A stretch of DNA of 64,000 bases, from the NCBI GenBank assembly GCA_963810095.1, contig CAWEMM010000006.1, positions 192,001 through 256,000 on the forward strand, in the 5' to 3' direction. This document shows positions 1 to 18,046 of the stretch, piece by piece (position 1 is the first letter of the stretch; the number at the start of each line of letters is the position of its first letter). Source of the DNA: an uncultured Chloroflexia bacterium (GTDB lineage: Bacteria > Chloroflexota > Anaerolineae > CG2-30-64-16). The notes below the pieces were generated by a model. That model saw only the letters and a program-made list of their open reading frames with translations, made no database searches and had not been told where the DNA came from. Made by a program: the position numbers and the translations under genes.

Positions 1-68
1 TGCATGGTCAGGATCGGGAATCCAGCCCACCGTGCGCCACCGGCAAGCGGCCTAGTGTATACAACCAC

Positions 69-108
69 CGCACAAACTTAGTGCGTTCTCTGCACCAACT
101 CAAGTGCA
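69..108. promoter_or_regulatory. Two tandem GCAC-N7/8-GTGC palindromes upstream of azoR (putative operator)
   Basis: CGCAC-aaactta-GTGCG at 69-85 and TGCAC-caactcaa-GTGCA at 91-108. Confidence 0.4.
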
Positions 109-182
109 GTGACGAGCCAAGGTCGGGGTGCTACAGACACGAACGCTTGCCAGATGAAGCGGTCCGCCACTAAGGGGGAAAG

Positions 183-893
183 ATGAAACTTCTTCACATC
201 ATCGCGTCTCCGCGCGAAGACAGATCTAATACTCTCCGGGTCGCGAATGCCTTCCTCGAAATCGTCAAGGCCAGATATCCGGACGTTTCGATCGAAGCGA
301 TCGATTTGTTCGTGCGCGACCTGCCGGCCGTTGCCGGAGACAACATCGAGAGCAAATACACGCTCATGGTGGGCGAGCGGATCGATAAGCGCCACCAGGA
401 ATCATGGCGGCAAATCGAACTCGAAATCGAGCGCTTCCTCGCCGCCGACATCTACCTGCTCTCCACGCCCATGTGGAACCTCAGCATCCCGTACGCGCTG
501 AAGTACTACATCGATGCACTGGTCCAGCCGGGCTACCTATTCAGGTACAACGAGAAGGGCCAGGCTATCGGGCTCGCGACGGGGAAGAAAATGGTTTGCG
601 TGACGAGTCGCGGCGGCGATTATTCCGACAGGAGCTACCTGAAATCCTACGATTTCCAGGAGCCGTACCTGCGCGCAATCTTCGGATTCGTCGGCATAAC
701 GGATATCCATTTCGTGAACGCCCAACCGATGGACATCACCGTCGAACTGCGCGAGGCCGCGCTTCAAGCCGCGCTCGCAGAGGTCCGAAGTTTAGCGGGC
801 GGCCACGATTGGGAGACGACGGGCCACTCCAACAGGGTTGAGAATCCCGAGCAACTAAAACCGGCGCCGCTCAATGCCCCGCCGGCCGCCTGA
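183..893 (+). CDS. azoR: FMN-dependent NADH-azoreductase
   Basis: N-terminal LHIIASPR; TPMWNLSIPYALKYYID; TSRGGDYS; YLRAIFGFVGI; purine-rich RBS before ATG. Confidence 0.9.
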   Translation: MKLLHIIASPREDRSNTLRVANAFLEIVKARYPDVSIEAIDLFVRDLPAVAGDNIESKYTLMVGERIDKRHQESWRQIELEIERFLAADIYLLSTPMWNLSIPYALKYYIDALVQPGYLFRYNEKGQAIGLATGKKMVCVTSRGGDYSDRSYLKSYDFQEPYLRAIFGFVGITDIHFVNAQPMDITVELREAALQAALAEVRSLAGGHDWETTGHSNRVENPEQLKPAPLNAPPAA

Positions 894-1329
894 CGATCGT
901 CCTCGCCGTCCGGGTCAGCCACAACGCAACCGCAAGGAGCACGAGGCCGGCCGCGTCAAACATGACAAAGCGGGTCAGGGACGCGCGCGCCAGGCCGACC
1001 GCCGCCGGTAGCGACAACAAAATGAGGCTCTCGCCGGTCAGGCCAATGGCCTGCATGGCGAGAGCCTCCCAAAGAGACACCCGGCGGCGTGCCGGATGCC
1101 ACAGTGCGACAGCATACGGCACGTTCCACATCAGGAACAAGAGGCCGATGCCCCTCACAGCCGCCTCGCCCGCCGCTCCGCGAAGCTCAAAGCCTACCAC
1201 ATACGTCGCCGGGTCCAACAGAAAGGCGACCCCGCACTGCACATTCCACGCCAGCACGACCGCAATGCAGATGCGCGCCAGCAGGATGCGACGCGCATCT
1301 GACGGCGCTCCGGACGCGGCCAGGCTCAC
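871..1329 (-). CDS. Hypothetical membrane protein (about 4 TM helices)
   Basis: Hydrophobic ORF with [11 protein letters not shown]; probable GTG start overlapping the fba stop (GTGA). Confidence 0.65.
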
Positions 1330-2402
1330 GCGATCGTCACTTCCGGGCACAAATACACGTCCTGGATCGCGTTCAGGATCTCCACGCCTTGCGCCATCGG
1401 CTTCTGGAACGCCTTGCGACCGCTAATCAGCCCGGTGCCGCCCGCACGCTTGTTGATCACCGCAGTCTTCACCGCCTCGGCCACGTCGTTCTTGCCCGAC
1501 GGCCCGCCGGAATTAATCAAGCCGATACGGCCCATGTAATTGTTGAGCACCTGGTAGCGCGTGAGGTCGATCGGATGGTCCGAAGCCAGATCGGTGTACA
1601 TCCGCTCGTCGAGTTTCCCGTAGCTCGAATCGGCCAGGCGCAGCGCCTTGTACCCGCCGTTGTTCTCGGGCAACTTCTGCTTGATGATGTCCGCGCCAAT
1701 CGTTGCGCCCAGGTGGTTCGCCTGCCCCGTCAGGTCTGCCGAGGTGTGATAGTCGACGCCGCCGGTCTTGAAGGCATTGTTGCGGGTATAGCACCACAGG
1801 ATGGTCGCGAGGCCGAGGTTGTGCGCTTCTTCGAACGCCTCGCTCACCTCCGTGATCTGCCGGGTCGAGTTCTCGGAGCCGAAGTAGATGGTGGCACCGA
1901 CCGCCACCGCGCCCATGTCCCAGGCTTGCCGGATGTGCGCGAAGAAGATCTGGTCGAACTTGTTCGGATAGGTCAGCAGCTCGTTGTGGTTGAACTTAAC
2001 GATGAAGGGTATCTTGTGCGCGTACTTGCGCGCGACAGAACCGAGCGCACCAAACGTCGAAGCAACGGCGTTGCAGCCGCCCTCGATCGCCAGGCGTACG
2101 ATGCTCTCGGGGTCGAAGTAAATCGGGTTGGGCGCAAACGAGGCACCGGCCGAGTGCTCGATGCCCTGGTCGACGGGCAGGATCGAGAGGTAGCCCGTGT
2201 TGCCCAATCGCCCGTGTGAGAACATGCTCTGCATGGAGCGAAGCACCTGCGGGGTACGGTCGGTGTTCGAGAAGACCCGGTCGATGAAATCGGGACCGGG
2301 CAGCTGAAGCCGCTCCTTCGCCACCTTGGGAGTGTTAAAGCCCAGGTAGTGCTGCGCCTCGTTGCCTAAGCACGCCTCGATTGCTCTGATGTCAAATGCC
2401 AT
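1326..2402 (-). CDS. fbaB: Class I fructose-bisphosphate aldolase (DhnA family)
   Basis: [37 protein letters not shown]; GGAGG RBS before ATG 2402. Confidence 0.95.
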
Positions 2403-2538
2403 GATGGACCTCCTGCATTCAAATGCCTGTCTCGCGACGACCAACGAGCCGATTATGACACAGTCCAGGGTCAACAACAAGTGATATTCAGTACCCCTGC
2501 CCGCGCATCGGGGCACGGGGCGGGGAAACGATACCCTA

Positions 2539-2567
2539 TTGACAATAACAAATAACCTCGCTATTAT
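2539..2567 (+). promoter_or_regulatory. Sigma70-type promoter of the Xer-like gene
   Basis: TTGACA (2539-2544), 17 bp, TATTAT (2562-2567). Confidence 0.8.
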
Positions 2568-2621
2568 GTTCAGCAGCAGGACTATACGAAGAAGTTTAAC
2601 GCTCTAGTCGCGGAGGCGATC

Positions 2622-3677
2622 ATGTCCGTTGAACAGCCCTTCTTGTTCGAGGTTGACGCGGAGAAACCGTCAGATTTGCTGCACGGGCTGGCGCCCGATT
2701 CTACCGAGGCGCTGCCGGAAGAGCCGGCCGGCGCAGACCAGGAGCTCATGGTGGATGCGATGCCCGAAGACAGCGTGGTGGTTGCGGCGACCGTGCCCGC
2801 CGGCGTCGATGCCGGTGCGCCGCTGAGCGACACGGCCCGGGCGTTCGGCCAGCACATGCTGCGCCAGGGCTTCTCCGACAATACGATCAAGGCATTCCAG
2901 GCGGACCTGCGCCTGTTTGCCCGCCATGTGGGTGAGAACAAGGCGGTCGGCCAGATCGGGCAGAGCGACCTCGAGGACTTCATGGCCTGGCTGCGGGCTG
3001 AGCGGGGCGTCCCTTGCAGCCCCAAGTCCTACGCACGGCGGCTGACCACGCTGAAGGTGTTCTTTGGTTGGCTGCGAGCGGCCGAGGTGCTCGACAAGGA
3101 TCCTGCCGCCCCCCTCGTCCACGTCCACCCCACGACGCCCATGCCGGAAATCCTCTACGACGGGCAGGTGAACGACCTGCTCGCGATTACCCGAGACTTA
3201 CTCTGGGCGCCGAAACCGGACGCGCGGCCGTATTTGCTGTTAACGCTGCTGCTGCAAACCGGAATCAAGAAGGGCGAGTGCATGGAGATCAAGCTCGAGC
3301 ACATCGACGTCTCCAACCCCCAGGCGCCCGTGCTCTACATCCGCTATCTCGATCCCCGGAAAACGCTGAAGGAGCGCCGGTTGGCGCTTGGCCCGAATTT
3401 CGCACCCGCCTACCGCCAGTACCTGCGGGAGTACCAGCCCAAGGAACACCTCTTCGAGTGCACCGCACGAAATCTGGAGTACGTGCTGGAGGAGGCCGCC
3501 GGCCTCGCGCACATTCCGGGTGGATGCTCTTTCGAGCAGCTGCGCTGGACCTGCGCGGTGCGCGACTATCGGAATGGGATGGCGGCAGACCAGCTGCGCC
3601 AAAAGCTGGGACTGTCGATGATTACGTGGCGCGAGACGCTGCCCAAGATTCAGAAGCTGGCACGGCCGGCGCTGTAG
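2622..3677 (+). CDS. Tyrosine-recombinase (XerC/D-fold) protein with degenerate active site
   Basis: SAM-like core-binding domain (FSDNTIKAFQADL; SYARRLTTLKVFFGWL) and catalytic-domain boxes LLQTGIKKGE, FEQLRWTCA, LRQKLGL; no C-terminal Tyr; GGAGG RBS. Confidence 0.85.
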   Translation: MSVEQPFLFEVDAEKPSDLLHGLAPDSTEALPEEPAGADQELMVDAMPEDSVVVAATVPAGVDAGAPLSDTARAFGQHMLRQGFSDNTIKAFQADLRLFARHVGENKAVGQIGQSDLEDFMAWLRAERGVPCSPKSYARRLTTLKVFFGWLRAAEVLDKDPAAPLVHVHPTTPMPEILYDGQVNDLLAITRDLLWAPKPDARPYLLLTLLLQTGIKKGECMEIKLEHIDVSNPQAPVLYIRYLDPRKTLKERRLALGPNFAPAYRQYLREYQPKEHLFECTARNLEYVLEEAAGLAHIPGGCSFEQLRWTCAVRDYRNGMAADQLRQKLGLSMITWRETLPKIQKLARPAL

Positions 3678-3706
3678 CTCGGGCAGATGCGCCCGCCGAG
3701 GAAGAC

Positions 3707-5129
3707 TTAGGGGGTGGGAGTGGGGGCCGGGGTGCGCGGCGCGCCGGAATTGGTCAGCGGGAGCAGCAGGGTGAGCAGGGCCGCATACTGCTCGTGCGCG
3801 TCGAGATAGGTCCCGCTCCACCCGCCCACGGCATACAGCTTGTTGTTCAACGGCGTCACCGCCAGATTGCGCCAGGCGCCGCCTACCGGCGTCCCCAATC
3901 GCGACCAGGCGTCCAGGCGCACATCATATTGCTCGTTGAACGCATCCCCATCGTCGCCGCCGCCCAGCGCAAACACCTGATTGCCCGCTGCAGCCACGCC
4001 GAGGCCCGACCGCGGCTGCTTGAGAGACGCCTTACGCTGCCAGGGCGAAGCTTTGGCCGAGTCGGCCCGGGGGTCGAACGCCAGGAGATCGGCGAGATCA
4101 CTGCGGCCGTCCGTGCCGCCGACGACGTAGACCGTGTCCTTCACAGCCGCCGCGCCCGCAAAGCCGCGCGGGCCGGGCATGGCCGGCCCTTCGGTCCAGC
4201 TGCCCGCGGCCGGGTCGAAGATTAAGGTTTCTCTCCTGTAGGTCCCACCGTCCCAGCCCCCGAACAGGTACAGCTTGCCGTTCCACACGGCCAGCGCGTA
4301 CGCGGCCAGCGGGCGGGGCAGGTCGGGTCCCTTCGACCAGGTATCGGAGGCCGGATCGTAGATCTCCAACGCGCCGCTGACACCCCCATTGGGCGTCGAG
4401 CCGCCCGGCACGTAGATCTGGCCGCCCAGCCAGCCGGCCCCGACATTGGCGACGGGTGAAGGCTTGGGCGCACCCGACAGCCACCCATTTGTCTTGGGAT
4501 CATAATATGTGACTTCGCCGGTGACGCCGTCCGCCGTTTCGCCACCAATCGCATAGACACGCGCTGCCGTCGGTGGTCAGGGCAAGCCGGCTGCGTGGGA
4601 CTGGGAGGGGCGAGCCGGCCGTCCAGCGCTGGACGGCGACGCGAGGCGGGGCGGCCACCTGGGTGCGGCCGGTGTCGGTGAAAGCGGTGAAAGCTGCGGC
4701 TGCGCTGCGGGCGTTCAGCCAGGAGGGCGCAAGCGCGCCGAGCACGGCCAGGGCCAGCGCGGCGACCAGGAGACCCTGCTGCCAGGCGGCGGCGGGTTTG
4801 TGCATGGGCGCATGCGGCATTAGCTCGGGCAGGGAGATGGGCGGGAGCACCAGCGCGGCCGATGCGGGTTCGACGGCGGGCTCGGGAGCCAGCGCCTCCT
4901 GCACCTCGCCCGGGACGTGGACCCACCCGCGGCGGACCGCCTCCATCGTAGCCTCGGTGCGCGACTGGACGCCCAGCTTCTCAAAGATGTTGCGCAGGTG
5001 GACCTTGACCGTGTTCGGGCTAATGCTGAGATCGCGCGCGATCTGCTGGTTCGTCGCGCCCGTGGCGACCAGCTTGAGGACTTCGAGCTCGCGCTCAGAG
5101 AGAACGTCGTAGTTTTCCGATACAGTCAT
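3707..5129 (-). CDS. LuxR-type HTH + TM helix + Kelch-repeat protein (one frameshift near 4560)
   Basis: LSERELEVL..GATNQQIA..LSISPNTVKVHLRNIFEKLGV; hydrophobic LLVAALALAVLGALA; the Kelch repeat continues in the shifted frame as RVYAIGG..YDPKTNGW..IYVPGG into ORF 3707-4411. Confidence 0.8.
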
Positions 5130-5148
5130 GCCGTAACGGGAGTAGATC

Positions 5149-5222
5149 GAACCACAAGACACCAAGACACGAAGAGCACAGAGACCTTTAGGAATCTCTG
5201 TGCCTTGGTGCCTTTGTGGTTT
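5149..5222. repeat. Dispersed CACAAAGR-type inverted-repeat element
   Basis: AACCACAAGACACCAAGACACGAAG ... CTCTGTGCCTTGGTGCCTTTGTGGTT. Confidence 0.8.
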
Positions 5223-5229
5223 GCGCTGT

Positions 5230-7783
5230 CTATGCCCAGGTCATCAGTTGGGTTGCGAACGGGTTGGGTAGGTTCGGATGCTGCGGGCGGGCGCGCACGC
5301 CATAGGCAAAGCGGCCGCTCTCGGGCACGTCGAACGCCTTCTCGTAGCACAGCCCCCCGTCGGCGGCGCCCGCGCGGTCCATGAGCAAGGCAACGGACTC
5401 CATTGGCCCATCGTTCCCCTCGCGCACGCAGACCAGCTCCACGGCGATGTCGTCGGGCCCAAGCGCGCCCGGCTGCAGCGTCGCGCGCACCACGAGCGGC
5501 TTGCCGATCGTCATCTCACCCCGCTCGGGACCGGTCGCGGTAATTGCGACCTGCGGCCAGGCTCCCTCGACGCGGCGCGTCCCATTCGGCAAGGTCTGCC
5601 GCCGCCTTGCTGTTGTCGGCATAGACGCGGCTGCCCAGCTCGCCCGCAGGGATGTAGAACTTACGCAGGTAATCCTTAAGCATCCGGTCGAAGCTGAAGT
5701 CGGGCGCGACGGTCATGATGGACGCCCGCATAATCTTCAGCCAGCCCTCGGGAATCCCTTGCTCGTTCCGCCGGTAGTAGGTCGGGACAATCAGGTTTTC
5801 CAGGATGGCATACAAGGATAGCGCATCGGCCTCGTCCTGCGCGGCCTCGTTGGGATACTCACGCTCCGCGCCGATCGCCCAGCCGTTGGTCCCGTCGTAG
5901 GATTCGCGCCACCAGCCGTCGAGCACGCTGAAGTTTGGCGCGCCGTTCAGCCCTGCCTTCTCGCCGCTGGTGCCGCTCGCTTCGAGTGGGCGCCGGGGGT
6001 TATTCATCCAGACGTCGACGCCCGAAACGAGATGGCGCGCGATGTTAGTGTCGTAGTCTTCGACAAACACGATCCTCCCCTGGAAGCCCGGCTGCTGGCT
6101 GTACTGGTACACCTGCTGGATGAACGCCTTGCCGGGCTCGTCCGCGGGGTGCGCCTTGCCGGCGAAGATCAGCTGGACCGGCCGGTCTGGGTCGTTCAGG
6201 ATTTTCTTGAGCCGCTCGGGATTGCGGAACATGAGCGTCGCGCGCTTGTAGGTCGCAAAGCGCCGGGCAAAGCCGATGGTCAGCGCAAAGGGGTCGAGCC
6301 CGGTTGCGGCCGCGTTGACGTCGGCGGGCGGCGCGCCGGTGCGCAGCAGCTGCACGGCCAGCCGCTCGCGCACGAGTGCCAGCATTTCTTCCTTAGCAGC
6401 CTGGTGCTGGCCCCACAGTTCCTCGTCCAGGATGTCGGCTACGCCCGCCCACGTCGAGCGCTCGTCGATGTCGTCGCGCCAGTTCGGGTTCAAATACTGG
6501 TCGAGCAGCGCAATCAGGCCGGGATGCGCCCAGGTGTCGGTGTGGACGCCGTTCGTGACGTGGTCGATCGGCACTTCCGGCTCGGGCAGGCTGGGCCAGA
6601 GCGAATTCCACATGTGCCGCGACACCTGGCCGTGCAGCTCACTGACGCCGTTGGCCAGGCCCGCGGTCTTGAGCGCCAGCACCGTCATGCTGAACTGGGG
6701 ACCCCAGGTATAGTCATAGCGGCCCAGAGCCAGGAAACGGTCGCGGTCCATGCCCATGCGATCCCAAAAATGGCCGAAGAAGCGATCCATGAGGTCGAAG
6801 CCGAACGCGTCGTTGCCGGCGGGCACGGGCGTGTGGGTCGTGAAGAGCGCGTTGGAGCGGCACGCCCAGAGCGCCGCGTCCGGTTCGAGGCCGCCCTCCT
6901 GCACCAGCTCGCGGATGCGCTCGAGCTGCAGGAATGCCGCGTGACCCTCGTTCATGTGCCAGACCGAGGGATTGATGCCCAACGCGCGGAGCGCCCGGAC
7001 GCCGCCGATGCCCAGGACAAACTCCTGCGAAATGCGGATCTGCACGTCGCCGCCGTAGAGGCGCGCGGACAGCTCGCGGTCGGCGGGCGCGTTCTGCTCG
7101 ACGTCCGTGTCCATGAGATAAATGGGGATGCGGCCGACCTGGATGCACCAAACCTTGGCGTAGACCCGGCGACCGGGAAGGTCGACGAAGATCAGCACTT
7201 GTTCGCCTTTGGGGTTGGTGGCGGGCCGCGCCGGCACCTCGGCGAAGTCCAGCTTCTCGTAGATGGCATGCTGCCGCCCGTCGGCATCGATGCGCTGCTG
7301 GAAGTAGCCTTGCGGATACAGGAAGCCCACGGCCACGAACGGCAGACCGAGGTCGCTAGCGGTCTTGCAATGGTCGCCCGCCAGGATGCCCATGCCGCCG
7401 GAATAGATGGGCAAGCTCTCGTGCAGCCCGAACTCGGCGCAGAAATAAGCGATAGTCCGGTTTTCTTGCTGCCCGTAGTGCCGGGCGTACCAGGTGGCGC
7501 CGGGCTCCGGATGCATATACTCGTCGAAGGCCCGCATGACGGCCTCGTAGCGCGCAAGGTAGCTGGGATCAGACGCCGCGGCATCGAGGCGGCCCTGGCT
7601 CACCAGACGCAGGAACTTGACGGGGTTATGATTGACCCGCTTCCAGACCTCCGGATCGATATCCTGGTACAGCGCCTCGGCGCCCGGGTTCCAACTCCAC
7701 CAGAGGTTATAGGCCAGCTCGGAAAGCCGCGCAATCTTGGGATCAGGGGCCGAGTAAACTGCAACGTGCCCTAAAGTCTTCAC
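5230..7783 (-). CDS. glgP: Alpha-glucan (glycogen/maltodextrin) phosphorylase (frameshift near 5575)
   Basis: NLWWSW, YSGGMGILAGD, HMNEGHA, ARRFATYKR, EASGTSGEKA; C-terminus continues in ORF 5230-5622. Confidence 0.93.
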
Positions 7784-7953
7784 AGAGTTCTCCTTCAGTG
7801 AATCAGCACCCCGCCCTGGGGCGAGGCGAACACAATACGTCCGATCATTTTAGCAGAAAGCGGCCTTCTCGCAAGAAAGTTGTGCGGCGGCAGGAATCCC
7901 GGATCGAGCGTGACGTGTTACAATGGGCAGACTTAACCATCTGGAGGGTGTCC

Positions 7954-8790
7954 ATGGCTGATGCCGATGCTCCGTCAGGCCGCCGCTATCATTATCCCGC
8001 ACAGCCGCCGCGCCCCAAGCGCTACCTGCTCATGTACAAACCATACGACGTCCTTGCGGAGTTCGGCGACGTACCGGGCAAGGAAACGCTCGGCAAGTAC
8101 GTCCCGATCCTCGGGCTCGAACCGGCCGGGCGGCTGGACCAGGACAGCGAAGGGCTGCTGCTGCTCACCGACGACGGCGAGTTGGCGCACCAACTGACGC
8201 ATCCCCAGTTTCACGTGCCGAAGACCTACCTGGTGCAGGTGGAAGGCGCACCGGGCAAGGAAAGCCTGGAGAAGCTGCGCCGGGGCGTGCTGGTCAAAGG
8301 TGAGACGACAGCCCCTGCAGAGGTCGAACTACTCGAGCGCACCCCAGACCTGCCGCCGCGCCAGCCGCCGGTGCGGGAGGACGTGGAGACGAGCTGGCTG
8401 CGCGTCGTGCTGCGCGAAGGCAAAAAACGGCAGGTGCGCCACATGACCGCGGCAGTCGGACATCCGACGCTGCGTTTGGTGCGGGTGGCCATCGGGCCGC
8501 TGACCATGCGCGGGCTGGCGCCGGGTGAATGGCGCGAGGCCGAGGGTGAGGAGCTGGCCAAGCTGCAGCGGGTGATGCGGTCGGTGGCAGAAGACTCACA
8601 GCAGCGCCCGTCGCGGGCGAAGAGGGTCAGTATCGGGACGCGCGGGGCAGGGTCACGCGGCAAGCGGTCAGCGCGAGCGGAGGACATGGAAGAGTACACG
8701 CATAGCGCAGTTGGGCGAGGCGATGGCTCGCGGCGAGCTGACCTCGCGCGGCATCGTCGAGGCGTATCTGAGGCGGATTGCCGAGATTGA
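7954..8790 (+). CDS. rRNA pseudouridine synthase (RsuA/RluB/E/F family)
   Basis: YKPYDV, AGRLDQDSEGLLLLT, EGKKRQVRHM, TLRLVRVAIG; GGAGG RBS; 3' end uncertain. Confidence 0.88.
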   Translation: MADADAPSGRRYHYPAQPPRPKRYLLMYKPYDVLAEFGDVPGKETLGKYVPILGLEPAGRLDQDSEGLLLLTDDGELAHQLTHPQFHVPKTYLVQVEGAPGKESLEKLRRGVLVKGETTAPAEVELLERTPDLPPRQPPVREDVETSWLRVVLREGKKRQVRHMTAAVGHPTLRLVRVAIGPLTMRGLAPGEWREAEGEELAKLQRVMRSVAEDSQQRPSRAKRVSIGTRGAGSRGKRSARAEDMEEYTHSAVGRGDGSRRADLARHRRGVSEADCRD

Positions 8791-10226
8791 CCAGGACGGT
8801 CCGCGCCTGAACTCGGTGATCGAGGTGAACCCGGACGCGCTGGACATCGCAGACGAGTTGGATCGGGAAAGACGCGACCGGGGCCCTCGCGGTCCGCTCC
8901 ACGGCATCCCGATTCTCGATTAAGGACAACATCGACACCGCGGATCGCATGCAGACCACCGCGGGCTCGCTGGCGCTCGCCGGCCACCGTGCAAAGGAAG
9001 ACTCGGCCGTCGCGGCGAGGCTTCGAGCGGCCGGCGCCGTGATCCTCGGCAAGACGAACCTGAGCGAGTGGGCCAACTTCCGCTCGAACCACTCCTCCAG
9101 CGGATGGAGCAGCCGCGGCGGCCAGACTCGCAACCCCTATGCCCTGGACCGCAACCCGTGCGGCTCGTCCTCGGGCTCCGGCGTCGCGGTGGCGGCTAAC
9201 CTGTGCGCTGCCGCAGTTGGAACGGAAACGGACGGCTCGATCATTTGCCCCTCGCAGACATGCGGCATCGTCGGGATCAAGCCGACGCTGGGGTTGGTCA
9301 GCCGGGCGGGCATTATCCCGATTGCACACAGCCAGGACACGGCCGGTCCGATGGCGCGCACGGTTGCAGACGCTTCCCTGCTGCTGGCCGCCATTGCGGG
9401 CGGCGACCCGGCCGACCCGGCTACGACGGCCGCGCCCGGGCAATTTCCCACGGACTATGCGGCGGCGCTGCGCCCGGATGGGCTCCGCGGCGCCCGCATC
9501 GGCGTCGCCCGCGCCTTCTTCGGCTTCAGCCCCGCCGTAGACGCGATCATGGAGGCGTGCATCGCCGCGCTGCGGGATGCGGGCGCCGAGATCGTCGATC
9601 CGGTCGAGGTCGCCCACGTCAAGGAGCTGGGCGAGACGGAGATGGAAGTCCTCCTGTACGAGTTCCATGCCGACCTGGACGCGTATCTCGCGAGTCACGA
9701 CGGCGAAGTGCGCTCGCTCGCCGAGGTCATCGCCTTCAATGCCGCCCACGCCGACGAAGTCATGCCCTACTTCGGCCAGGAGTTGATGGAGAAGGCACAG
9801 GCGAAGGGCCCGTTGGCGGAGGAGAAGTACCTGCAGGCGCTGGCGGCCAACCATCACCTGTCGCGTGAGGAAGGGATCGACGCGACGCTGGCGCAGCCAC
9901 AATCTCGACGCGATCGTCGAGCCGTCAGGCGGGCCGGCCTGGCTGACCGACCACATCAACGGCGACCATTACACCGGGGGAAGCTCGTCGCCGGCCGCTG
10001 TCGCCGGCTACCCGAGCATCACCGTGCCTGCCGGCTATGTGCGCGGGCTGCCCGTCGGCCTCTCGTTCGTCGGCCCGGCCTGGAGCGAGGCGAAGCTGAT
10101 CCAGGCTGGCGTATGCCTTCGAGCAAGCCACGCAGGTGCGGCGTCGCGCCCGAGTTTCTGCTGCGTATGGCTACGGTGCAGCATAATTTGCCGCTGAGCC
10201 GCGGACATAGCTGCACGGTCGCATGA
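8686..10226 (+). CDS. Amidase-signature family amidase (several frameshifts)
   Basis: [52 protein letters not shown] spread over ORFs 8711-8923, 8949-10226 and 9865-10197; GGAGG-ATG at 8686. Confidence 0.88.
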
Positions 10227-11187
10227 TGACGCAGACCGGACACGCTTTGCCTGATCCTGCCGCTCCACGCACCGAACACGCCTACTGGCCCTATCTTTAT
10301 GTCAATCTGGCAACGCTGATGTGGGCGGGGAACATGACGCTGGGCCGCGCGCTGCGCGGGCAGATCGGGCCGTTTGCGCTGACCGCGGCGCGTGTGCTCA
10401 TCGCCTCGGATCCTGCTCTTGCTCCTTTTCCGGCGGCTGCCGGCCGCGGAGCGGCGGGTGGGACAGGACGGCCCCCTGCTGATCGGCATGGCCCTCACCG
10501 GCATCGTCGGCTTCCCCATCCTGCTCTACTACGCGCTGCGCTTCACCACCGCCACCAATGCTGCGCTGATCAACGGCACGGGCCCGCTGGTCACCGCGGC
10601 GCTGGCCGCCGTCTTGCTGCACGAACGCCTGCGCCCCGCACAGCTTGCCGGTGCGGCCCTGTCGCTCTCCGGCGTCGCACTGGTGATTGGCGTGGGGGTA
10701 GGAGGGTTCGCGGGCGGGCTGAATCGCGGCGATGCGATCATGCTGCTCGACGCCGCGATCTGGGCGCTGTATTCGATCATGGGCCGAGTGGTGATGCGGG
10801 GGCGCAGCAACCTGTCGGCGACCGCCTTTGCCACCTGGTTCGCGCTGCCGCCGCTGCTGGTGGCCGCTGCCTTCGAATGGCGCACCGCGCCACCCGACCT
10901 GACACCGGCCGGTGTGCTCGGCGTGCTGTATATCGGCGTGTTTGCCGCGTTCGTAGCCGTCATCCTGTGGAACGAAGGCGTGCGGCGCACGGGTCCGACG
11001 GGCGCGATGGCGTTCTACAATATGCTGCCCGTGTTCGGCGCGCTGCTCGGCGCGCTTGTTCCTGGGCGAGCGCCTGGCGCCCCTGCAAGTGGCCGGCGCC
11101 GGCCTCGTCGTGCTTGGAGGATTGATCAGCGCCCTATGGAAGACTTCTCTCTCACCGAGACGCGTGCCAGGCGTTTCGCCGCGCTAG
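10223..11187 (+). CDS. EamA/DMT family transporter (frameshifts near 10410 and 11057)
   Basis: [27 protein letters not shown]; about 10 hydrophobic segments. Confidence 0.82.
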
Positions 11188-12185
11188 CCCTCAACTTGCA
11201 TCGGCCGCGAGTATCCCTACCACCCGGCGCACACCATCAATGGCCCAGCCGACGTCCGCCGGCCCCGTGAAATGCACCCCGCCTTCTACGGCTGCTTCGA
11301 CTGGCACTCGGCGGTGCATGGCCATTGGCTGCTGGTGCGGGTGCTGCGGCAGCGCCCCGGCGTCGCCAACGCCCGAGATATCCGGGCAGCGCTGAACGAT
11401 CACCTCTCGGAAGAGAACCTGGCCGCCGAACTGGCCTACTTCGAGGAGCCGGGCCGGCAGGGGTTCGAGCGGACGTACGGGTGGGCCTGGCTGCTCAAGC
11501 TGGCGGAGGAGCTGGCGGGGTGGGAGGATGCGGACGGCCGCGGCCTGGTCCGCCGCACTGGAGCCGCTGGCCGAGCTCATCGAGCGGCGTTATCTCGACT
11601 TCCTGCCGCGCCAGGTATACCCCATCCGCACGGGCGTCCACCCGAACACCGCCTTCGGCCTGACGTTCGCGCTGGACTACGCCCGGGCGCTGGGACGTTA
11701 CGAACTGGCGTCATTGGTCGAGGCCCGCAGCCGCGACTACTACGGCGGCGACGCAAGTGCGCCGGCCGGGTGGGAGCCGGGCGGGAACGAGTTCTTCTCG
11801 CCGTCGCTGATGGAAGCCGACCTCATGCGCCGGGTGCTGGCGGCCGGGGAGTATCAGCCGCTGGCTCGACCGCTTCTTGCCCAACCTGCGTGCAGAACGG
11901 CCGCGGGCGCTCCTCGAACCCGCGGCGGTCACCGACCGCTCTGACGGACAGCTGGTGCACCTCGACGGGTTGAACCTGAGCCGAGCCTGGTGCATGTGGT
12001 CGATTGCGACCGTCCTTCCAGCGGGTGATGCGCGACGGACAATCCTTGCGGCGGCGGCCGAGAGGCATGCAACAGCCGGCCTGGCGGGGGTCGACAGCGG
12101 GGAGTACATGGGTGACCATTGGCTGGCGACGTTTGCGGTCGCCATGCTGGATGCAGCGGACCAATTCGTGCGAACAGGGGAGTGA
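11136..12185 (+). CDS. DUF2891-family protein (several frameshifts)
   Basis: HPAFYGCFDWHSAVHGHW, FERTYGWAWLL, PIRTGVHPNTAF, HLDGLNLSRAW, YMGDHWLATFA. Confidence 0.8.
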
Positions 12186-12190
12186 AGACC

Positions 12191-12943
12191 ATGACACCGA
12201 CCTTCAAACAGCGACTTCAGGCGGGGGAGACCGTGGTTGGCCCGATCCTCGCCCTGCCCTGCCCCGACGTGGCCGACCTGCTCTCGCGCGTCGGGTTCGA
12301 CTATCTGTGGATCGACCTGGAGCACTCGCCGATGGACGTCGGCGACGCCCAGATGCTGATCCAGGCCGCGGGCGACCGCTGCCCGTGCATCATTCGAGTG
12401 CCGGAAGTCAGCGAGGCGTGGATCAAGAAGGCGCTCGACACCGGGTGCGACGGGATCGTGATCCCGCAGATTCGGTCGGCGGCTGAGGCCCGAGCGGCGG
12501 TGGCCTGGTGCCAGTATCCTCCGGCGGGCAGGCGGGGCGCGGCTTTCACCCGGGCGCACGGGTTCGGGCTCAGCTTCGCAGAGTACGTGGACCGGGCGAA
12601 CACGGATGTGGCAATCATCCTGCAGGTCGAGCACATCGACGCGGTCGACGACATCGACGCGCTGCTGCTGACGCCGGGCGTTGCGGCACTGTTCGTCGGG
12701 CCATTTGATCTTTCGGGCAGCATGGGGCTGTTGGGCCAGGTCGGGCACACGGACGTGCAGGCGGCAATCGACCGGGTCGTGCGCGCGGGGCGGGCCGCGG
12801 GAATGCCCTTGGGGTTGTTTGTTGCCGACCCGGCGGCCGCGCCCGCGGCTGTCGGACGGGGATTCAACATGATCGCGGTGGGCACGGACATGTCCTACCT
12901 GCTGAACGCGGGCCGGGCAGCCCTGGAAGCCGCCCGCGGGTAG
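12191..12943 (+). CDS. HpcH/HpaI-family class II pyruvate aldolase
   Basis: FDYLWIDLEHSP, LDTGCDGIVIP, YPPAGRRG, LFVGPFDLS. Confidence 0.88.
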   Translation: MTPTFKQRLQAGETVVGPILALPCPDVADLLSRVGFDYLWIDLEHSPMDVGDAQMLIQAAGDRCPCIIRVPEVSEAWIKKALDTGCDGIVIPQIRSAAEARAAVAWCQYPPAGRRGAAFTRAHGFGLSFAEYVDRANTDVAIILQVEHIDAVDDIDALLLTPGVAALFVGPFDLSGSMGLLGQVGHTDVQAAIDRVVRAGRAAGMPLGLFVADPAAAPAAVGRGFNMIAVGTDMSYLLNAGRAALEAARG

Positions 12944-13018
12944 GAAGGGGAAAGGCGACAGCAGCGAAACGCGGAAATCCAAAACGCGCAACACACGAAA
13001 GTCGTTAAGGAAAGCGCC

Positions 13019-14014
13019 ATGTCAAGACCCAACGTCTTCATCACCCGCATCATCCCCGACAAGGGGCTCGACCTGATCCGGGAGTTCTGCGAGGTCGATC
13101 TGTGGACAGACGAACTGCCGCCCACGCGCGCGACCTTGCTCGAACGCGTCGCCGGCATCAACGGCCTGCTGAGCCTGCTGACCGACCGCATCGACGGCGA
13201 AATCATGGACGCGGCCGGCCCGCAGCTGAAGGTGATCTCGAACCATGCGGTCGGGTTTGATAACGTCGACGTGCCGGCAGCGACGGCCCGGGGCATCCCC
13301 GTTGGCAACACGCCCGGCATCCTGACCGACGCGACGGCGGACTTCGCCTTTGCCCTGCTCATGACAGCCGCACGTCGAGTCGTCGAGAGCGAGCGCTACG
13401 TGCGCGACGGCAAATGGAAGACCTGGGGGCCGTCGCTGCTGCTGGGGCAGGACATTCACGGCGCGACCCTGGGCCTGATCGGTTTCGGCAGGATCGGGCA
13501 GGCGATGGCGAAACGGGCGCAGGGATTCGACATGCGGGTGCTCTACTACGATCCGTCAAGCCCCGTCACCCATCCCGCGCTGCACGCGACGCCGGCCGGC
13601 CTGGAGACCTTGCTGGCCGAGAGTGACTTCGTCTCCATCCACACGCCGCTGACGCCCGAGACGCGCGGGCTAATGAACCGGGAGCGATTCGGCCTGATGA
13701 AGCCTACGGCGGTGCTTATCAACACGGCCCGCGGGCCGGTCGTCGACCCCGCCGCCCTGTACGATGCGCTCTCGGCCGGCCGCATCTTCGCGGCCGCGCT
13801 GGACGTGACGGACCCCGAACCGATCCCGTTCGACAGCCCGCTGCTGGCGCTCGACAACCTGGTGGTCGTCCCCCACATCGCCAGCGCCAGCGTGGCGACC
13901 CGGCAGAAGATGTCGCTGATGGCCGCGCAAAATCTGATCGCAGGGTTGCAGGGCGAGCGGCTGCCGAACTGCGTAAACCCGGAAGTGTATTCAGCACTGG
14001 CTTCGGCCACCTAA
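13019..14014 (+). CDS. gyaR: D-glycerate dehydrogenase / glyoxylate reductase
   Basis: AVGFDNVD, GLIGFGRIG, INTARG, ALDVTDPEP, PHIASAS. Confidence 0.88.
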   Translation: MSRPNVFITRIIPDKGLDLIREFCEVDLWTDELPPTRATLLERVAGINGLLSLLTDRIDGEIMDAAGPQLKVISNHAVGFDNVDVPAATARGIPVGNTPGILTDATADFAFALLMTAARRVVESERYVRDGKWKTWGPSLLLGQDIHGATLGLIGFGRIGQAMAKRAQGFDMRVLYYDPSSPVTHPALHATPAGLETLLAESDFVSIHTPLTPETRGLMNRERFGLMKPTAVLINTARGPVVDPAALYDALSAGRIFAAALDVTDPEPIPFDSPLLALDNLVVVPHIASASVATRQKMSLMAAQNLIAGLQGERLPNCVNPEVYSALASAT

Positions 14015-14098
14015 CCACAAAGGCTCCAAGGCACGAAGGTGCACCAAGGCTTGCAGGAGACTCGCGCAGGCTCCGTGTCTTTGTGACTTTGTGGTTAG
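14011..14098. repeat. CACAAAGR-type inverted-repeat element; contains the gyaR TAA
   Basis: CTAACCACAAAGG ... CTTTGTGGTTAG. Confidence 0.8.
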
Positions 14099-14129
14099 CA
14101 CCGCCCGGCCTTCGCGCGGTTTTCCGCAT

Positions 14130-14159
14130 TTGACAACCTTCTGTACTCTATGTTAGAGT
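14130..14159 (+). promoter_or_regulatory. Promoter of the ilv-leu operon
   Basis: TTGACA (14130-14135), 18 bp, TG-n-TAGAGT extended -10. Confidence 0.6.
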
Positions 14160-14169
14160 GCCGCCCGTC

Positions 14170-14253
14170 ATGAAGAACACCGGCCTGGTCCTCGTCCTTA
14201 TTAGCAAGCTCCTCGTTCTTGAGGAGCTAGTTCCACTTGGGAGGACCTGCTAA
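14170..14253 (+). CDS. ilv/leu operon leader peptide MKNTGLVLVLISKLLVLEELVPLGRTC (27 aa)
   Basis: Translated by hand: 8 Leu, 4 Val, 1 Ile; lies just upstream of a terminator and ilvB. Confidence 0.85.
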   Translation: MKNTGLVLVLISKLLVLEELVPLGRTC

Positions 14254-14288
14254 GGCCGAACTGAGCCAAAGTAGACCCTGAAAGCCGC

Positions 14289-14323
14289 AGAGGGCCTCCC
14301 AGACCGGGAGGCCCTCTTTAATT
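14289..14323 (+). terminator. Attenuator terminator
   Basis: Perfect 12-bp stem AGAGGGCCTCCC-agacc-GGGAGGCCCTCT followed by TTAATT. Confidence 0.85.
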
Positions 14324-14380
14324 CCTGCCACCGCCGGCACCCTCAAGGCACTGACGCCCCCGCCGCAACGATGCTGTTGA

Positions 14381-14468
14381 CTAACCACAAAAAAACTAAG
14401 ACACAAAGGGGCACGAAGCCTACGGGTCGACTTTGTGGACCTTCGAGTCTTTGAGCCTTCGTGGTTAG
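14381..14468. repeat. CACAAAGR-type inverted-repeat element in the ilvB leader
   Basis: CTAACCACAA ... ACACAAAGGGGCACGAAG ... CTTCGTGGTTAG. Confidence 0.75.
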
Positions 14469-14507
14469 CGTCTGTACCCCCTACGGCACTATTTTGGAGG
14501 TTTTACC

Positions 14508-16217
14508 ATGCAACGCACCGGCGCTCAGATCATCTGGGAAAGTTTCATGCGGGAAGGCGTCGACGTCGTCTTCGGCTATCCGGGCGGCGCGATCATGCCG
14601 GCCTACGATGCCCTGCTCGACTACCCTGTGCACCACGTCCTCGTCCGGCATGAGGAGAACGCAGCGTTTGCGGCCGACGGCTATCCGCGAGCGTCGGGCC
14701 GGGTCGGCGTGTGCATGGCCACATCCGGGCCGGGCGCGACGAACCTGATCACCGGGCTGGCCGGCGCCATGATGGACTCGATCCCCGTCGTCGCCGTCAC
14801 CGGGCAGGTCGCTTCCCCCTTCGTCGGCACGGACGCGTTCCAGGAGACCGATGTCACCGGCGTCACGCTCCCCATCACCAAGCACAACTACCTGATCAAG
14901 GACGTGGCCGACCTGCCCCTGGCCATGAAGGAAGCCTTCCACATTGCCCGCTCGGGCCGGCCCGGCCCCGTGCTGGTGGACGTGTGCAAAGACGTGCAGT
15001 TCAAATCGACCGAGTTCGACTACGATGCCATCCACCTGCGTCTGCCGGGCTACCGGCCCCACTTGCGCGGCCGCGCAGAGCAGGTGCGCAGGGCCGCTGC
15101 TTTCATCAACGCCTCGCAACGTCCCGTCATCCTCGCCGGCCACGGCATCATCCTCTCGGGCGCACACGACGAGCTCCGCACCCTGGCGGAAAAGGGCCAA
15201 ATTCCAGTCTCCACCACGCTGTTGGGTATCGGCGCCATGCCGGAATCGCACCCGCTAAACCTGCGCATGATGGGCATGCATGGCGAGGCGTTCGTCAACC
15301 AGGCAATCCACAATGCCGACTTAATCATTGCGCTCGGCATGCGCTTCGACGACCGTGTGACCGGCAACCTGGCAACCTACGCGCAGAACGCGAACGTCAT
15401 TCACGTCGACATCGATCCGGCGGAGATCGGCAAGAATGTCACGACCGACGTGGGCATCGCCGGCGACGTGCGCCAGGTGCTCCAGCAGTTGCTGCCCCTG
15501 GTCGAGACTAGCGACCGGAGCGGCTGGTTCAACCAGATCGAAGAGTGGCGCGTCGACTCTGCAGCGCGCGACATCCTGTCGAACGGGCACGATAAGGCCC
15601 CACACGTGCCCTACGTCGTGGACGCAATCCACAAGGCGACCCGCGGCGTGCACGCGACCATCGTAACCGACGTGGGGCAGCACCAGATGTGGACCGCGCA
15701 GTATTACCGGCACGACAACCCTAACCGGTTCCTGACATCCGGCGGCCTGGGCGCGATGGGCTACGGCCTCCCCGCAGCCATCGGCGCCAAGTTTGCCAGG
15801 CCGGAAGACGAGGTGTGGGCAGTCGTCGGGGATGGCGGCTTCCAGATGAGCATCCCGGAACTGGCGACTCTGGCGCAGGAAGGGCTGGGCGTGAAGATCG
15901 CGATCATGCGCAACGGCTATCTCGGCATGGTGCGCCAGTGGCAGGAACTGATCCACGGCAAGCGCTATTCGGAGGTCCAGATCAAAGCGCCCGACTTCCT
16001 GAAGCTGGCGGACGCCTACGGTATTGTCGGGATGCGGGCCACCAAGCGCTCAGAGGTCCACGACGTCATCGCCGAAGCCCGCTCCTTCGACGGGCCGGTG
16101 CTGATGGATTTCGTCGTAGAGCAGGAAGAAAACGTGTACCCGATGGTCGCACCGGGCAAATCGTTGAACGATATGCTGCGCCGGCCGATGAACGAGCGCA
16201 TTGCGGCGGGATACTAA
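14508..16217 (+). CDS. ilvB: Acetolactate synthase large subunit
   Basis: FGYPGGAI, RHE, TSGPGATN, DVGQHQMW, SGGLGAMG, GDGGFQM; GGAGG RBS. Confidence 0.96.
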   Translation: MQRTGAQIIWESFMREGVDVVFGYPGGAIMPAYDALLDYPVHHVLVRHEENAAFAADGYPRASGRVGVCMATSGPGATNLITGLAGAMMDSIPVVAVTGQVASPFVGTDAFQETDVTGVTLPITKHNYLIKDVADLPLAMKEAFHIARSGRPGPVLVDVCKDVQFKSTEFDYDAIHLRLPGYRPHLRGRAEQVRRAAAFINASQRPVILAGHGIILSGAHDELRTLAEKGQIPVSTTLLGIGAMPESHPLNLRMMGMHGEAFVNQAIHNADLIIALGMRFDDRVTGNLATYAQNANVIHVDIDPAEIGKNVTTDVGIAGDVRQVLQQLLPLVETSDRSGWFNQIEEWRVDSAARDILSNGHDKAPHVPYVVDAIHKATRGVHATIVTDVGQHQMWTAQYYRHDNPNRFLTSGGLGAMGYGLPAAIGAKFARPEDEVWAVVGDGGFQMSIPELATLAQEGLGVKIAIMRNGYLGMVRQWQELIHGKRYSEVQIKAPDFLKLADAYGIVGMRATKRSEVHDVIAEARSFDGPVLMDFVVEQEENVYPMVAPGKSLNDMLRRPMNERIAAGY

Positions 16218-16277
16218 CCACAAAGACACAAAGACGCGAAGCCTCGACGTGATGGTGCCTTTCTGTCTTTGTGTTGA
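16214..16277. repeat. CACAAAGR-type element; contains the ilvB TAA
   Basis: CTAACCACAAAGACACAAAG ... GTCTTTGTGTTGA. Confidence 0.8.
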
Positions 16278-16298
16278 GGCGTTGCTACTGGAGGATTT

Positions 16299-16934
16299 AT
16301 GCCTTATATCGACCGAACCACGGGCCACCAGGCGCCGCACGTACTCGTGGCGCTGGTGGAGAACAAACCGGGCGTGCTGACCCGGGTGGCCAGCCTGTTC
16401 CGCCGCCGCGGCTTCAACATCGAGAGCCTGACCGTCGGCCACACAGACTCACCTGAGATCTCGCGCATGACGATTGTCGTCGACGCCAACAAGACGGACG
16501 CGACGATGGTCGAGCACAACCTGTTCAAGCTGGTCAACGTGATTGACGTGCAGGACGTGACCCGCCAGCCCGCGGTGCTGCGCGACCTGGCGCTGATCAA
16601 GGTCCGGGTGAACCAGCAGTCGCGCTTCGAGATCGTCCAGTTGGCCGACATCTACCGGGCGAAGGTGGTCGACGTCTGCTCGGATTCGATGATCCTGGAA
16701 GTGACAGGCCCCGAGGCCAAGATCGACTCCATCGCAGATATGCTGCAGCCGTACGGGGTCATCGAAATGGTGCGCACGGGGCTGGTGGCCATGGTGCGCG
16801 GCTCCGGGCATTTCACAGGCTTTGCGCCCGAACATTCAACCGGCGAAGAGGGCGAGAGCGAAGCCGAGTTGGCATACGCCGAGGCAGGCCCCCTGGACGA
16901 CGATGCGCCGCTATCAAGACGGCTGGGCATGTAG
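16299..16934 (+). CDS. ilvN: Acetolactate synthase small subunit
   Basis: [27 protein letters not shown]; EMVRTG; acidic C-terminal extension. Confidence 0.95.
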
Positions 16935-16939
16935 GATTT

Positions 16940-17000
16940 GTAGCCGCGAGCTTCAGCTCGCCATCGCATGCAGCTATGCGCAAGCTGAAGCTCGCGCTAC
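16940..17000. repeat. GTAG-family REP-like palindrome pair
   Basis: GTAGCCGCGAGCTTCAGCTCGC ... GCAAGCTGAAGCTCGCGCTAC. Confidence 0.7.
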
Positions 17001-17023
17001 CAACTCTCATCAGGAGCTTATTC

Positions 17024-18046
17024 GTGGCAAACATTTATTATGACAAGGATGCGGACCTCGGGCGGCTGAGCGGGAAGACCGTTGCCATCATCGGCTTCGG
17101 CAGCCAGGGGCATGCCCACGCGCAGAACCTGCACGACTCGGGCGTGAATGTGGTCGTCGGGCTGTACTCGGGGAGCAAGTCGTGGGCCAAGGTGGAGGCG
17201 GCCGGGCTGACGCCGATGACGGTTGCGGAGGCTACCCGCGCAGCCGACGTCATCATGGTCCTCACACCCGACGTCGGCCAAGGCAAGCTCTACCGGGAAG
17301 AGATCGCGCCGAACCTCTCCGCAGGCAAAACGCTCATGTTCGCGCACGGGTTCGGCATCCGTTTCGGCCAGGTCGTGCCCCCGGCCGACGTCGACGTGAG
17401 CATGATTGCGCCCAAGGGCCCGGGGCACCGGGTTCGCGAAACGTACGTGGCGGGCCAGGGTGTGCCTGCGCTGTTGGCGGTCTACCAGGATGCGAGCGGG
17501 AACGCGAAGGCCAACGCGCTGGCCTATGCCAGTGGCATCGGCGCAGGGCGCTCGGGCGTCCTGGAAACCACTTTTGCCGAGGAAACCGAGACGGATCTCT
17601 TCGGCGAGCAGGCCGTGCTGTGCGGCGGTATCTCGAACCTGATGAAGGCGGGGTTCGAGACGCTCGTCGAGGCGGGCTATCAGCCCGAAATCGCCTATTT
17701 CGAGTGCATCCACGAGATGAAGCTCATCGTCGACCTGATCTACCAGGGCGGACTCTCGTACATGCGCTACTCCGTGAGCGATACGGCAGAGCACGGCGAC
17801 TACCGCTCGGGCCCACGCGTCGTGACCGACGAGACACGCGCCGAGATGCGCAAAATCCTGTCCGAAATCCAAACGGGGCAGTATGCGGAAGAGTGGATGG
17901 ACGAGAACGCCTCCGGCCGGCCGGTCTTCAACAAGATCCGAGCCGACGAGATGGACAGCCAGGTCGAGCAGGTCGGTCGCAACTTGCGCCGGATGATGCC
18001 CTGGTTGAACCCGAAGGAAGTCAAGCCCGGTGAGGGCGGCGCGTAA
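17024..18046 (+). CDS. ilvC: Ketol-acid reductoisomerase
   Basis: [34 protein letters not shown]; GTG start after AGGAG. Confidence 0.96.

Follow-up and report, generated by a model that had tools for sequence, protein, structure and literature searches.

An intact gene at positions 2622-3677 of the analysed window (the whole 64,000-nucleotide stretch, derived from contig CAWEMM010000006.1 of an uncultured Chloroflexia bacterium, assembly GCA_963810095.1) was found to encode a protein with the fold of a tyrosine recombinase, in which the catalytic His residues and the Tyr-bearing segment are lacking. We are highly confident that this protein, designated here as the pseudo-recombinase, represents a conserved non-catalytic derivative of Xer recombinases. 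Its N-terminus carries a pentapeptide matching the β-clamp-binding consensus, and the gene product is regarded as a tyrosine-recombinase fold that was turned into a non-catalytic and probably clamp-binding protein. The features on which this interpretation is based are listed below.

2622..3677, + strand: whole open reading frame (ORF) of 351 aa plus stop codon with an ATG start, a pseudo-recombinase of tyrosine-recombinase (Xer-like) fold (domain, alignment and model matches)
2634..2648, + strand: QPFLF pentapeptide, residues 5-9, matching the β-clamp-binding consensus Q-L-x-L-F (conservation and pattern counts)
2649..2816, + strand: acidic linker of variable length, predicted to be disordered, residues 10-65 (model confidence and composition)
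2817..3101, + strand: core-binding (SAM-like) four-helix domain, residues 66-160 (PF02899 at residues 81-153, expectation value (E) 1.2e-10)
3147..3674, + strand: catalytic-fold domain without a working active site, residues 176-351 (PF00589 at residues 178-330; Foldseek)
3267..3269, + strand: K216 at the Arg I position (TGIKKGE), mostly Lys in the family, with Arg in 8/80 rows
3369..3371, + strand: K250, the β-hairpin Lys, retained (LKER), with K or R in 93% of the rows of alignment A2
3534..3548, + strand: E305-Q-L-R308-W309 in place of H-x-x-R-H, with His II gone and Arg II present (alignment A1)
3606..3614, + strand: L329-G330-L331 in place of L-G-H, with His III gone (His in 0/80 rows, mainly Leu or Ile)
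3624..3629, + strand: T335/W336, junction of an eight-residue deletion of the Tyr-bearing segment (gap columns in A1)

A tyrosine-recombinase fold lacking its catalytic residues

The presence of core-binding and catalytic-fold segments, as proposed in an initial annotation of the stretch, was corroborated by Pfam, structure prediction and Foldseek alike. The scores for PF02899 and PF00589 both exceeded the Pfam cut-offs, and the PF00589 match was shown to span profile positions 3-155 of 172, thereby stopping before the Tyr region. For structure prediction with AlphaFold2, a 30-row alignment was supplied (A2; its rows share 27-75% identity with the query, at 36% mean column identity). The resulting model exhibited a mean predicted local distance difference test (pLDDT) value of 88 and a predicted template modelling (pTM) score of 0.75, with each of the core-binding helices (residues 68-81, 86-103, 114-127 and 134-153) reaching a pLDDT above 90. 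When this model was searched with Foldseek, XerA, Cre, IntI, Tn1549 Int, XerH and lambda Int were all retrieved with a probability of 1.00, the top match being XerA (5hxy). As judged from the predicted structure, affiliation of the pseudo-recombinase with the tyrosine recombinase superfamily is confirmed by fold.

Sequence-based models were shown to be far less decisive. The best NCBIfam models were those of XerD (TIGR02225; 77.6 bits versus a cut-off of 329.6), XerC (TIGR02224; 73.1 bits versus 335.15) and XerA (69 bits versus 220); the XerD and XerC matches, both below the equivalog cut-off, cover just residues 80-274. The sole significant sequence match in the PDB was XerD (1a0p, residues 80-237), while PHROGs returned generic integrase families and no more, at 58 and 38 bits. 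The core-binding region also displayed a weak match (E 0.12) to PDB entry 9i5v (Porphyromonas gingivalis 70S ribosome), namely to chain 14, which comprises 401 residues and is labelled 'RaiA'. The words recombinase, integrase, XerC and XerD are all absent from the text of the 9i5v paper, and the match may be due to a peculiarity of labelling or to a recombinase-like domain that has escaped notice.

To compare the active site with those of active relatives, two alignments were employed: A1, which contains the query and 11 homologues versus the XerC-like and XerD-like proteins of the same genome, and an 80-row family set, in which the query and five close homologues were combined with 74 representatives of 280-420 aa, aligned to the same two active Xer proteins. 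The genome encodes a canonical XerD-like ORF (307 aa) and a canonical XerC-like ORF (322 aa), each of which carries the ...R..SE, GKG.KER, H.LRHSFATH and LLGH motifs together with the Tyr segment.

Active tyrosine recombinases possess a catalytic pentad R-K-H-R-H/W plus a Tyr nucleophile, as described in the main text of PMC8138268. The corresponding residues of the query are K216, K250, E305, R308 and L331, and only two of the five (the hairpin Lys and Arg II) are retained. The altered motifs TGIKKGE, EQLRW and LGL, as well as the missing Tyr at the nucleophile position, had been pointed out in the initial annotation and were all recovered in the alignments: the eight-residue gap between T335 and W336 coincides with the T-T-Q-x-Y-T-H-V segment of the XerC- and XerD-like proteins of the same genome.

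The same pattern of catalytic loss was observed throughout the family set, even in rows with no more than about 26% identity. The His II column contains His in none of the 80 rows, Arg II is present in 79 of them (R308 being invariant in A2), and the nucleophile column holds a Tyr in a single row (P0136), which itself lacks the His residues. Six rows that appear frameshifted (P0121, P0137, P0169, P0190, P0197 and P0267) were kept in these counts and were removed for a survey of Tyr residues, which consequently comprised 74 rows. From residue 300 onwards, no conserved Tyr was found downstream of Arg II, the highest frequency being 27% in the 74 rows and 33% in A2. Two alternative nucleophiles were considered and rejected: Y316, as Tyr occurs there in just 27-33% of rows, and Y267, as this residue is also conserved in active XerC and XerD. 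With its Tyr segment lost and replacements at three of five pentad positions, the protein is unable to establish a phosphotyrosyl link.

These data bear on the alternative that the pseudo-recombinase is still an enzyme, i.e. a recombinase, nickase or topoisomerase-like protein that employs an unconventional nucleophile or the Tyr of a partner in trans. K216, K250 and R308 remain as cationic groups where the active site used to be, and the neighbouring residues S332 and W336 are conserved, both of which would fit such an activity. Conversely, both His residues are lost in all 80 rows, the entire Tyr segment is deleted, no Tyr past Arg II is conserved (Y267 being shared with canonical XerC/XerD) and the Pfam catalytic-domain match halts short of the profile end, and the enzymatic alternative is accordingly deemed improbable.

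A near-core gene of the class under purifying selection

A word-indexed protein search yielded 4114 matches at E ≤0.001 among 8000 scored candidates. The best 120 of these 4114 matches are 68-81% identical to the query and mostly 322 aa in length, and those among them that bear a name are designated 'site-specific recombinase XerD' or similar. An exhaustive phmmer search of 50%-identity representatives retrieved 93 clusters at E ≤1e-30.

Across the class, the gene was detected in 108 of 121 sampled genomes (records titled Anaerolineae), with two matches in three genomes and a single match otherwise; when restricted to genomes that are at least 90% complete, it was present in 85 of 90. In a phylum-wide sample, 45 of 201 genomes were shown to harbour one copy each (E ≤1e-20). 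Close relatives were derived from metagenome-assembled genomes (MAGs) titled Anaerolineae, Anaerolineales, Chloroflexota or 'uncultured Chloroflexia', and a relative with 58% identity is encoded by Candidatus Amarolinea aalborgensis. Records titled Ktedonobacterales form a subgroup in which the folded domain is about 37% identical to that of the query. The nearest ESM Atlas clusters were mainly assigned to Chloroflexota and carry generic recombinase names alone. Outside this phylum, no relatives were established in our searches, which were narrow: of two candidates, P0222 led to an Anaerolineae MAG and P0182 to just a 22%-identical integrase-like stretch from Bacteroidota.

Ratios of nonsynonymous to synonymous substitution rates (dN/dS) were calculated for 12 pairs with the Nei-Gojobori method (dS 0.14-1.5). 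For the fold, i.e. from residue 66 onwards, these ranged from 0.03 to 0.13, while the N-terminal part exhibited values of 0.03-0.64 that were mostly above those of the fold. The pseudo-recombinase is under strong purifying selection and constitutes a near-core, usually single-copy gene of the class.

In the genome under study (G000, in which the window corresponds to C6:192001-256000), 14 PF00589 matches were identified, with the pseudo-recombinase being among the weakest. A quick maximum-likelihood tree separated four active recombinases of this genome from the family with a Shimodaira-Hasegawa-like approximate likelihood ratio test (SH-aLRT) value of 99; the divergent family member L090f was placed nearest to the active recombinases. 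The pseudo-recombinase is interpreted as a vertically inherited, non-catalytic descendant of an Xer-type tyrosine recombinase.

That the gene could instead be a decaying or recently disabled copy of XerC, XerD or a prophage integrase is suggested by its weak scores against the Xer models and by the apparently frameshifted state of nearby genes in the assembly (see below). Identical substitutions recur through the family, dN/dS is low, nearly all sampled genomes of the class carry the gene, in most cases as one copy, its ORF is intact and colinear with those of its homologues, and att-like repeats, tRNA and phage genes were not found nearby. Decay to a pseudogene is refuted by the conservation data, and we assign it a negligible probability. 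The initial annotation had viewed the gene as a domesticated and apparently catalytically dead recombinase; these sequence comparisons support that view, as homologues do not keep the R-H-R-H-Y set, dN/dS is far below 1 and no Tyr is conserved past Arg II. The roles put forward there (DNA-binding regulator, nucleoid or segregation factor, partner of an active Xer) are putative.

A putative clamp-binding motif at the N-terminus

The N-terminal extension of about 60 aa had been noted in the initial annotation for its acidic nature, which was substantiated by composition, residues 1-65 containing 15 D/E versus one K/R. However, the acidic stretch proved to be lineage-specific, as the linker is shorter and non-acidic in most homologues (322 aa), and a conserved Q-x-x-L-F motif at its start had been overlooked. 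By reading the extension as merely acidic, the feature that says most about function was missed.

The conserved tip of the family reads M-S-x-E-Q-[L/P]-x-L-F. Alignment A2 contains five invariant columns only, of which Q5 is one, and L8 and F9 are conserved in at least 90% of rows. A strict pattern, Q-[LIMVFP]-x-[LMIF]-F within the first 60 residues, was observed in 112 of 120 close homologues and in 32 of 70 distant full-length representatives, while a single occurrence was recorded among 771 control windows (60 residues each) drawn from elsewhere in the same proteins. With a looser pattern, these numbers increased to 117/120 and 42/70, respectively. The commonest forms are QLDLF, QPFLF, QLALF, QLSLF, QLVLF, QLNLF and QLGLF. 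Among Ktedonobacterales-titled loci, which represent a second class and from which one locus cut by a contig end was excluded, EQP[S/G/N]LF was found in 18 of 20 and VQSGLF in the remaining two.

In the AlphaFold2 model, residues 14-48 and 50-52 exhibit a pLDDT below 50, and the motif itself is located in a stretch with values of 42-58. Short linear motifs are expected in disordered parts of proteins, and the low pLDDT is therefore consistent with such a motif.

The bacterial β-clamp-binding consensus is QL[SD]LF. A precedent for its use near an N-terminus is provided by Hda, which is described in PMC5397184 as binding the clamp cleft via a conserved N-terminal motif quoted as QLSLF, the Hda sequence itself being 6-QLSLPL-11.

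When the six-frame ORFs of the genome under study with a length of 200 aa or more were scanned, spurious ones not being removed, 57 occurrences of Q[LP]xLF were found. Ten carriers with the motif at a terminal or linker position were chosen by eye and analysed with Pfam. The five carriers with a role in replication or repair were an IMS/ImuB-like protein (QQLSLFD), a DnaE fragment (GQLTLFGE after an HhH domain), MutS (C-terminal QPVLFQLPLF), a UvrD-like C-terminal fragment (L100, G000:C2:60765-61514) that ends in QLALF, and RuvB (L102, G000:C6:1789588-1790766), which ends in GEQPGLFGEG. Non-replication carriers were represented by radical-SAM, methyltransferase, NAD-binding and GtrA-family proteins and by one protein without a family.

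The IMS/ImuB-like carrier is a weak IMS-family ORF (L101, G000:C6:1011571-1012842) with its motif near the C-terminus and is located ~7 kb from dnaN, and the radical-SAM protein (L103, G000:C12:555392-556285) ends in ...QLALF. The tails of RuvB, the UvrD-like fragment and the radical-SAM protein may, from their sequences, represent possible clamp-binding sites on proteins that are not usually listed as clients.

With the active recombinases as the root of the tree, motif-bearing rows were basal and spread, and rows lacking the motif were nested. Labelling the tree by motif implied at least four to five changes, although miscalled start codons can generate false 'none' labels. This arrangement fits an ancestral motif that was lost several times, suggesting that the clamp tether may be widespread and old, and dispensable in some lineages.

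A complex prediction for DnaN of the same genome (alignment A3) with residues 1-70 of the pseudo-recombinase (A2) yielded scores of 0.01 and 0.00; this prediction was control-free, an interface of five residues is small, and the scores are given no weight in either direction. Considering the motif as a whole, we find it fairly probable that the N-terminal peptide binds DnaN.

Alternatively, and in line with the initial annotation, the pseudo-recombinase may bind DNA or partner Xer proteins as a non-catalytic Xer derivative, with its Q-x-x-L-F peptide serving something other than the clamp, for example docking on another partner, acting as a degron or folding back onto its own protein. The fold, the dead active site and purifying selection apply equally to this alternative, and several subgroups function without the motif. 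Moreover, the C-terminal ...LARPAL resembles the ...AHPRA tail of XerC and XerD of the same genome. The C-terminal tail of Xer proteins mediates protomer-protomer contacts in Xer synapses, and a hetero-complex of the pseudo-recombinase with an active Xer protein is conceivable. Against a non-clamp role, the sequence of the motif and its commonest variants correspond to the clamp consensus, as does its placement close to the N-terminus within a disordered linker, clamp clients in the same genome bear the same motif, and we know of no other partner for a Q-x-x-L-F pentapeptide. This alternative is regarded as possible, albeit clearly less probable than clamp binding.

Proposed mode of action

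The fold of the pseudo-recombinase is read as a DNA-binding module because conserved basic residues remain, including K216, K250 and R308. Sixteen positions, among them 216, 250 and 308, carry K or R in 80% or more of the A2 rows, and the folded part contains 39 K/R versus 32 D/E. K216, K250 and R308 would represent the cationic positions that contact the scissile phosphate in active enzymes, and the C-shaped, two-domain, DNA-embracing Xer fold would clamp DNA without cutting it. Judging from its sequence, position and conservation, the N-terminal pentapeptide would dock in the cleft of DnaN, while the flexible linker of ~50 residues would let the DNA-binding module sample DNA beside loaded clamps. 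Such a tether would bring the module to replication forks or freshly replicated DNA, where it might recognize a chromosomal site or block access to it, help XerC/XerD or hold them back, or release SMC from DNA in the manner of Bacillus XerD. Taking these elements together, we lean slightly towards the pseudo-recombinase being a DNA-binding protein of Xer descent that is non-catalytic and is held at DnaN by its N-terminus.

Several points weigh against this interpretation. Clamp binding and DNA binding are both inferred, as is the emptiness of the active site, which is deduced from alignment. Five of the ten annotated motif carriers, picked by eye from 57, are not replication or repair proteins, and the query has Pro rather than the consensus Leu at position 2 of its motif (QPFLF). 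In a subgroup characterized by the sequence FDMCRWT, which has a short N-terminus, the motif is missing in all 12 readable loci (genomes of 2.2-4.4 Mb, families f2 and f4; the N-terminus of L008 is not among the 12), and other nested groups in the tree also lack it. Clamp tethering is therefore not essential to the core function of the family. Furthermore, no conserved operon partner pointing to replication was found among 60 compared loci, in which the neighbours vary by lineage.

A further-reaching proposal is put forward tentatively: a replisome-tethered pseudo-recombinase, ancestral in much of Chloroflexota, that would constitute a new class of β-clamp client and a replication-coupled reader of specific sites. 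The targets of such a site reader, which would employ the DNA-embracing Xer fold, could include dif-like or terminus sites that it might mark, shield or pass to XerC/XerD; it might also unload SMC at fork passage. It would then be a dedicated, non-catalytic counterpart to the moonlighting activity of Bacillus XerD.

Putative expression signals and genomic context

Putative signals for expression of the pseudo-recombinase gene were identified upstream of its start codon.

2539..2567, + strand: promoter-like site TTGACA-17-TATTAT (consensus match at 11/12 positions)
2612..2616, + strand: Shine-Dalgarno-like GGAGG, 5 nt ahead of the ATG (direct sequence reading)

The promoter-like site is located in an AT-rich spacer between the pseudo-recombinase ORF and a divergent aldolase gene, and was found once as compared with a mean of 0.1 in 50 shuffled sequences. 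Alignment showed the ORF and its homologues to be colinear from Met1 to the stop codon and free of frameshifts, and short-read contigs from four public runs, with partial cover and low depth, contained no listed inserted or deleted letters across 2622-3677. The full-length ORF without an indel, the good ribosome-binding site and the consensus promoter reported in the initial annotation were all retained on re-examination, as was its description of a gene in housekeeping surroundings that lacks flanking att sites, tRNA or mobile cargo.

The neighbouring genes are of a housekeeping type and encode a flavodoxin-like reductase, a DeoC/LacD-family aldolase, a LuxR-Kelch protein, glucan phosphorylase and a pseudouridine synthase. 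In the 60 loci compared, homologues of the convergent LuxR-Kelch gene were present in 33-34, GlgP in 27 and RluB in 17; these three are the neighbours seen within the taxonomic order of the query. Loci of the FDMCRWT subgroup are instead flanked by TilS and LytR-CpsA-Psr genes, and Ktedonobacterales-titled loci by a GH113-like gene.

No tRNA gene was found in positions 1-20000 of the window, flanking repeats above chance were not found (just short GC-rich ones), and a PADLOC defence search returned zero matches. A mobile-element integrase or a defence gene was rejected on these grounds, together with the housekeeping neighbours and the class-wide single-copy occurrence. A 34-nt direct repeat with 79% identity (1149-1182 and 4135-4168) brackets the region; both copies are located in GC-rich coding sequence, and the repeat is probably due to chance.

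Two neighbouring genes appear to be interrupted. The LuxR-Kelch gene is split into a GerE/LuxR ORF (4500-5165) and a Kelch ORF (3707-4411), both on the - strand, while relatives possess one ORF of about 440-490 aa; the split (3707-5165, - strand) is a frameshift or an assembly indel. In this region, an extra A behind position 5155 was observed in one low-depth contig of run X4. Similarly, glucan phosphorylase is represented by overlapping ORFs (5516-7783 and 5230-5622, - strand), as opposed to one ORF of about 850 aa in relatives. At 5581, within the overlap, one base is missing from a short-read contig of run X2 with a depth of 2.3, and the break may be an assembly error. A third apparent frameshift concerns the dinB gene (L098, about 2480-2560, G000:C7), the end of which, with the clamp-type motif QLRLFE near the C-terminus of DinB and the usual ...LDRIKAKYGE ending, is frame-shifted from the rest of the gene.

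With regard to replication genes of the same genome, dnaA (G000:C6:1751747-1752223) and dnaN (C6:1003522-1004706) are located about 750 kb apart on one contig and are not adjacent. In a check for further clamp-linked regulators of initiation, the Pfam Bac_DnaA model retrieved DnaA and, weakly, a second locus, and no YabA was detected in this genome, which is 88.5% complete; this has no bearing on the conclusion.

Significance and comparison with known systems

Genes of this family are routinely annotated as 'tyrosine recombinase XerD' or 'integrase', and such annotation causes Xer genes and mobile elements to be overcounted in MAGs of Chloroflexota. To our knowledge, the chromosome biology of Chloroflexota is almost unstudied. 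No such family was found in the literature searched, which leaves out most subscription journals and is consequently no proof of absence. Tyrosine recombinases are usually studied as enzymes, and the main text of PMC8138268, on the classification of these proteins, contains neither 'Chloroflex' nor 'inactive' and describes no non-catalytic conversion kept as a near-core gene of a class; its supplementary subgroup tables may list the family. If the N-terminal motif binds DnaN, the pseudo-recombinase would represent a new kind of bacterial sliding clamp client, in which site-specific DNA recognition is linked to fork passage.

The pseudo-recombinase shares with XerC/XerD and archaeal XerA the arrangement of a SAM-like core-binding domain followed by a catalytic-fold domain, and with XerC/XerD the KER hairpin, Arg II, the LG turn and an A-x-P tail. 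In contrast to XerC/XerD, Arg I is replaced by Lys, His II by Glu and His III by Leu, and the Tyr segment is deleted. The disordered N-terminal extension with Q-x-x-L-F is not present in XerC and XerD of the same genome, where the pseudo-recombinase coexists with canonical XerC- and XerD-like genes.

Tyrosine-recombinase folds have also been domesticated for host functions in Crypton-derived animal genes. These are eukaryotic, derived from transposons and devoid of a clamp motif, and their kinship with the pseudo-recombinase is at the level of the fold only.

As in Hda, a clamp-dependent regulator of DnaA in Proteobacteria, a clamp-type peptide is located within the first dozen residues and is followed by an effector domain. 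The likeness is architectural only, as the effector of Hda is an AAA+ domain and that of the pseudo-recombinase a recombinase fold.

ImuB likewise carries a clamp motif. PMC6511836 refers to this protein as a 'catalytically dead essential component'. By analogy of logic only, both proteins may represent inactive enzyme folds that selection maintains and for which the clamp serves as a platform or adaptor; fold and pathway differ.

The role of Bacillus XerD in unloading SMC reportedly requires neither recombination nor catalysis. In Bacillus subtilis, XerD is described as a sequence-specific SMC unloader at the terminus (PMC12322038). By analogy, the pseudo-recombinase may be an Xer-fold protein that acts as a site-bound, non-recombining factor. 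However, Bacillus XerD is recombination-competent, whereas the pseudo-recombinase is without the catalytic set and has an added clamp motif.

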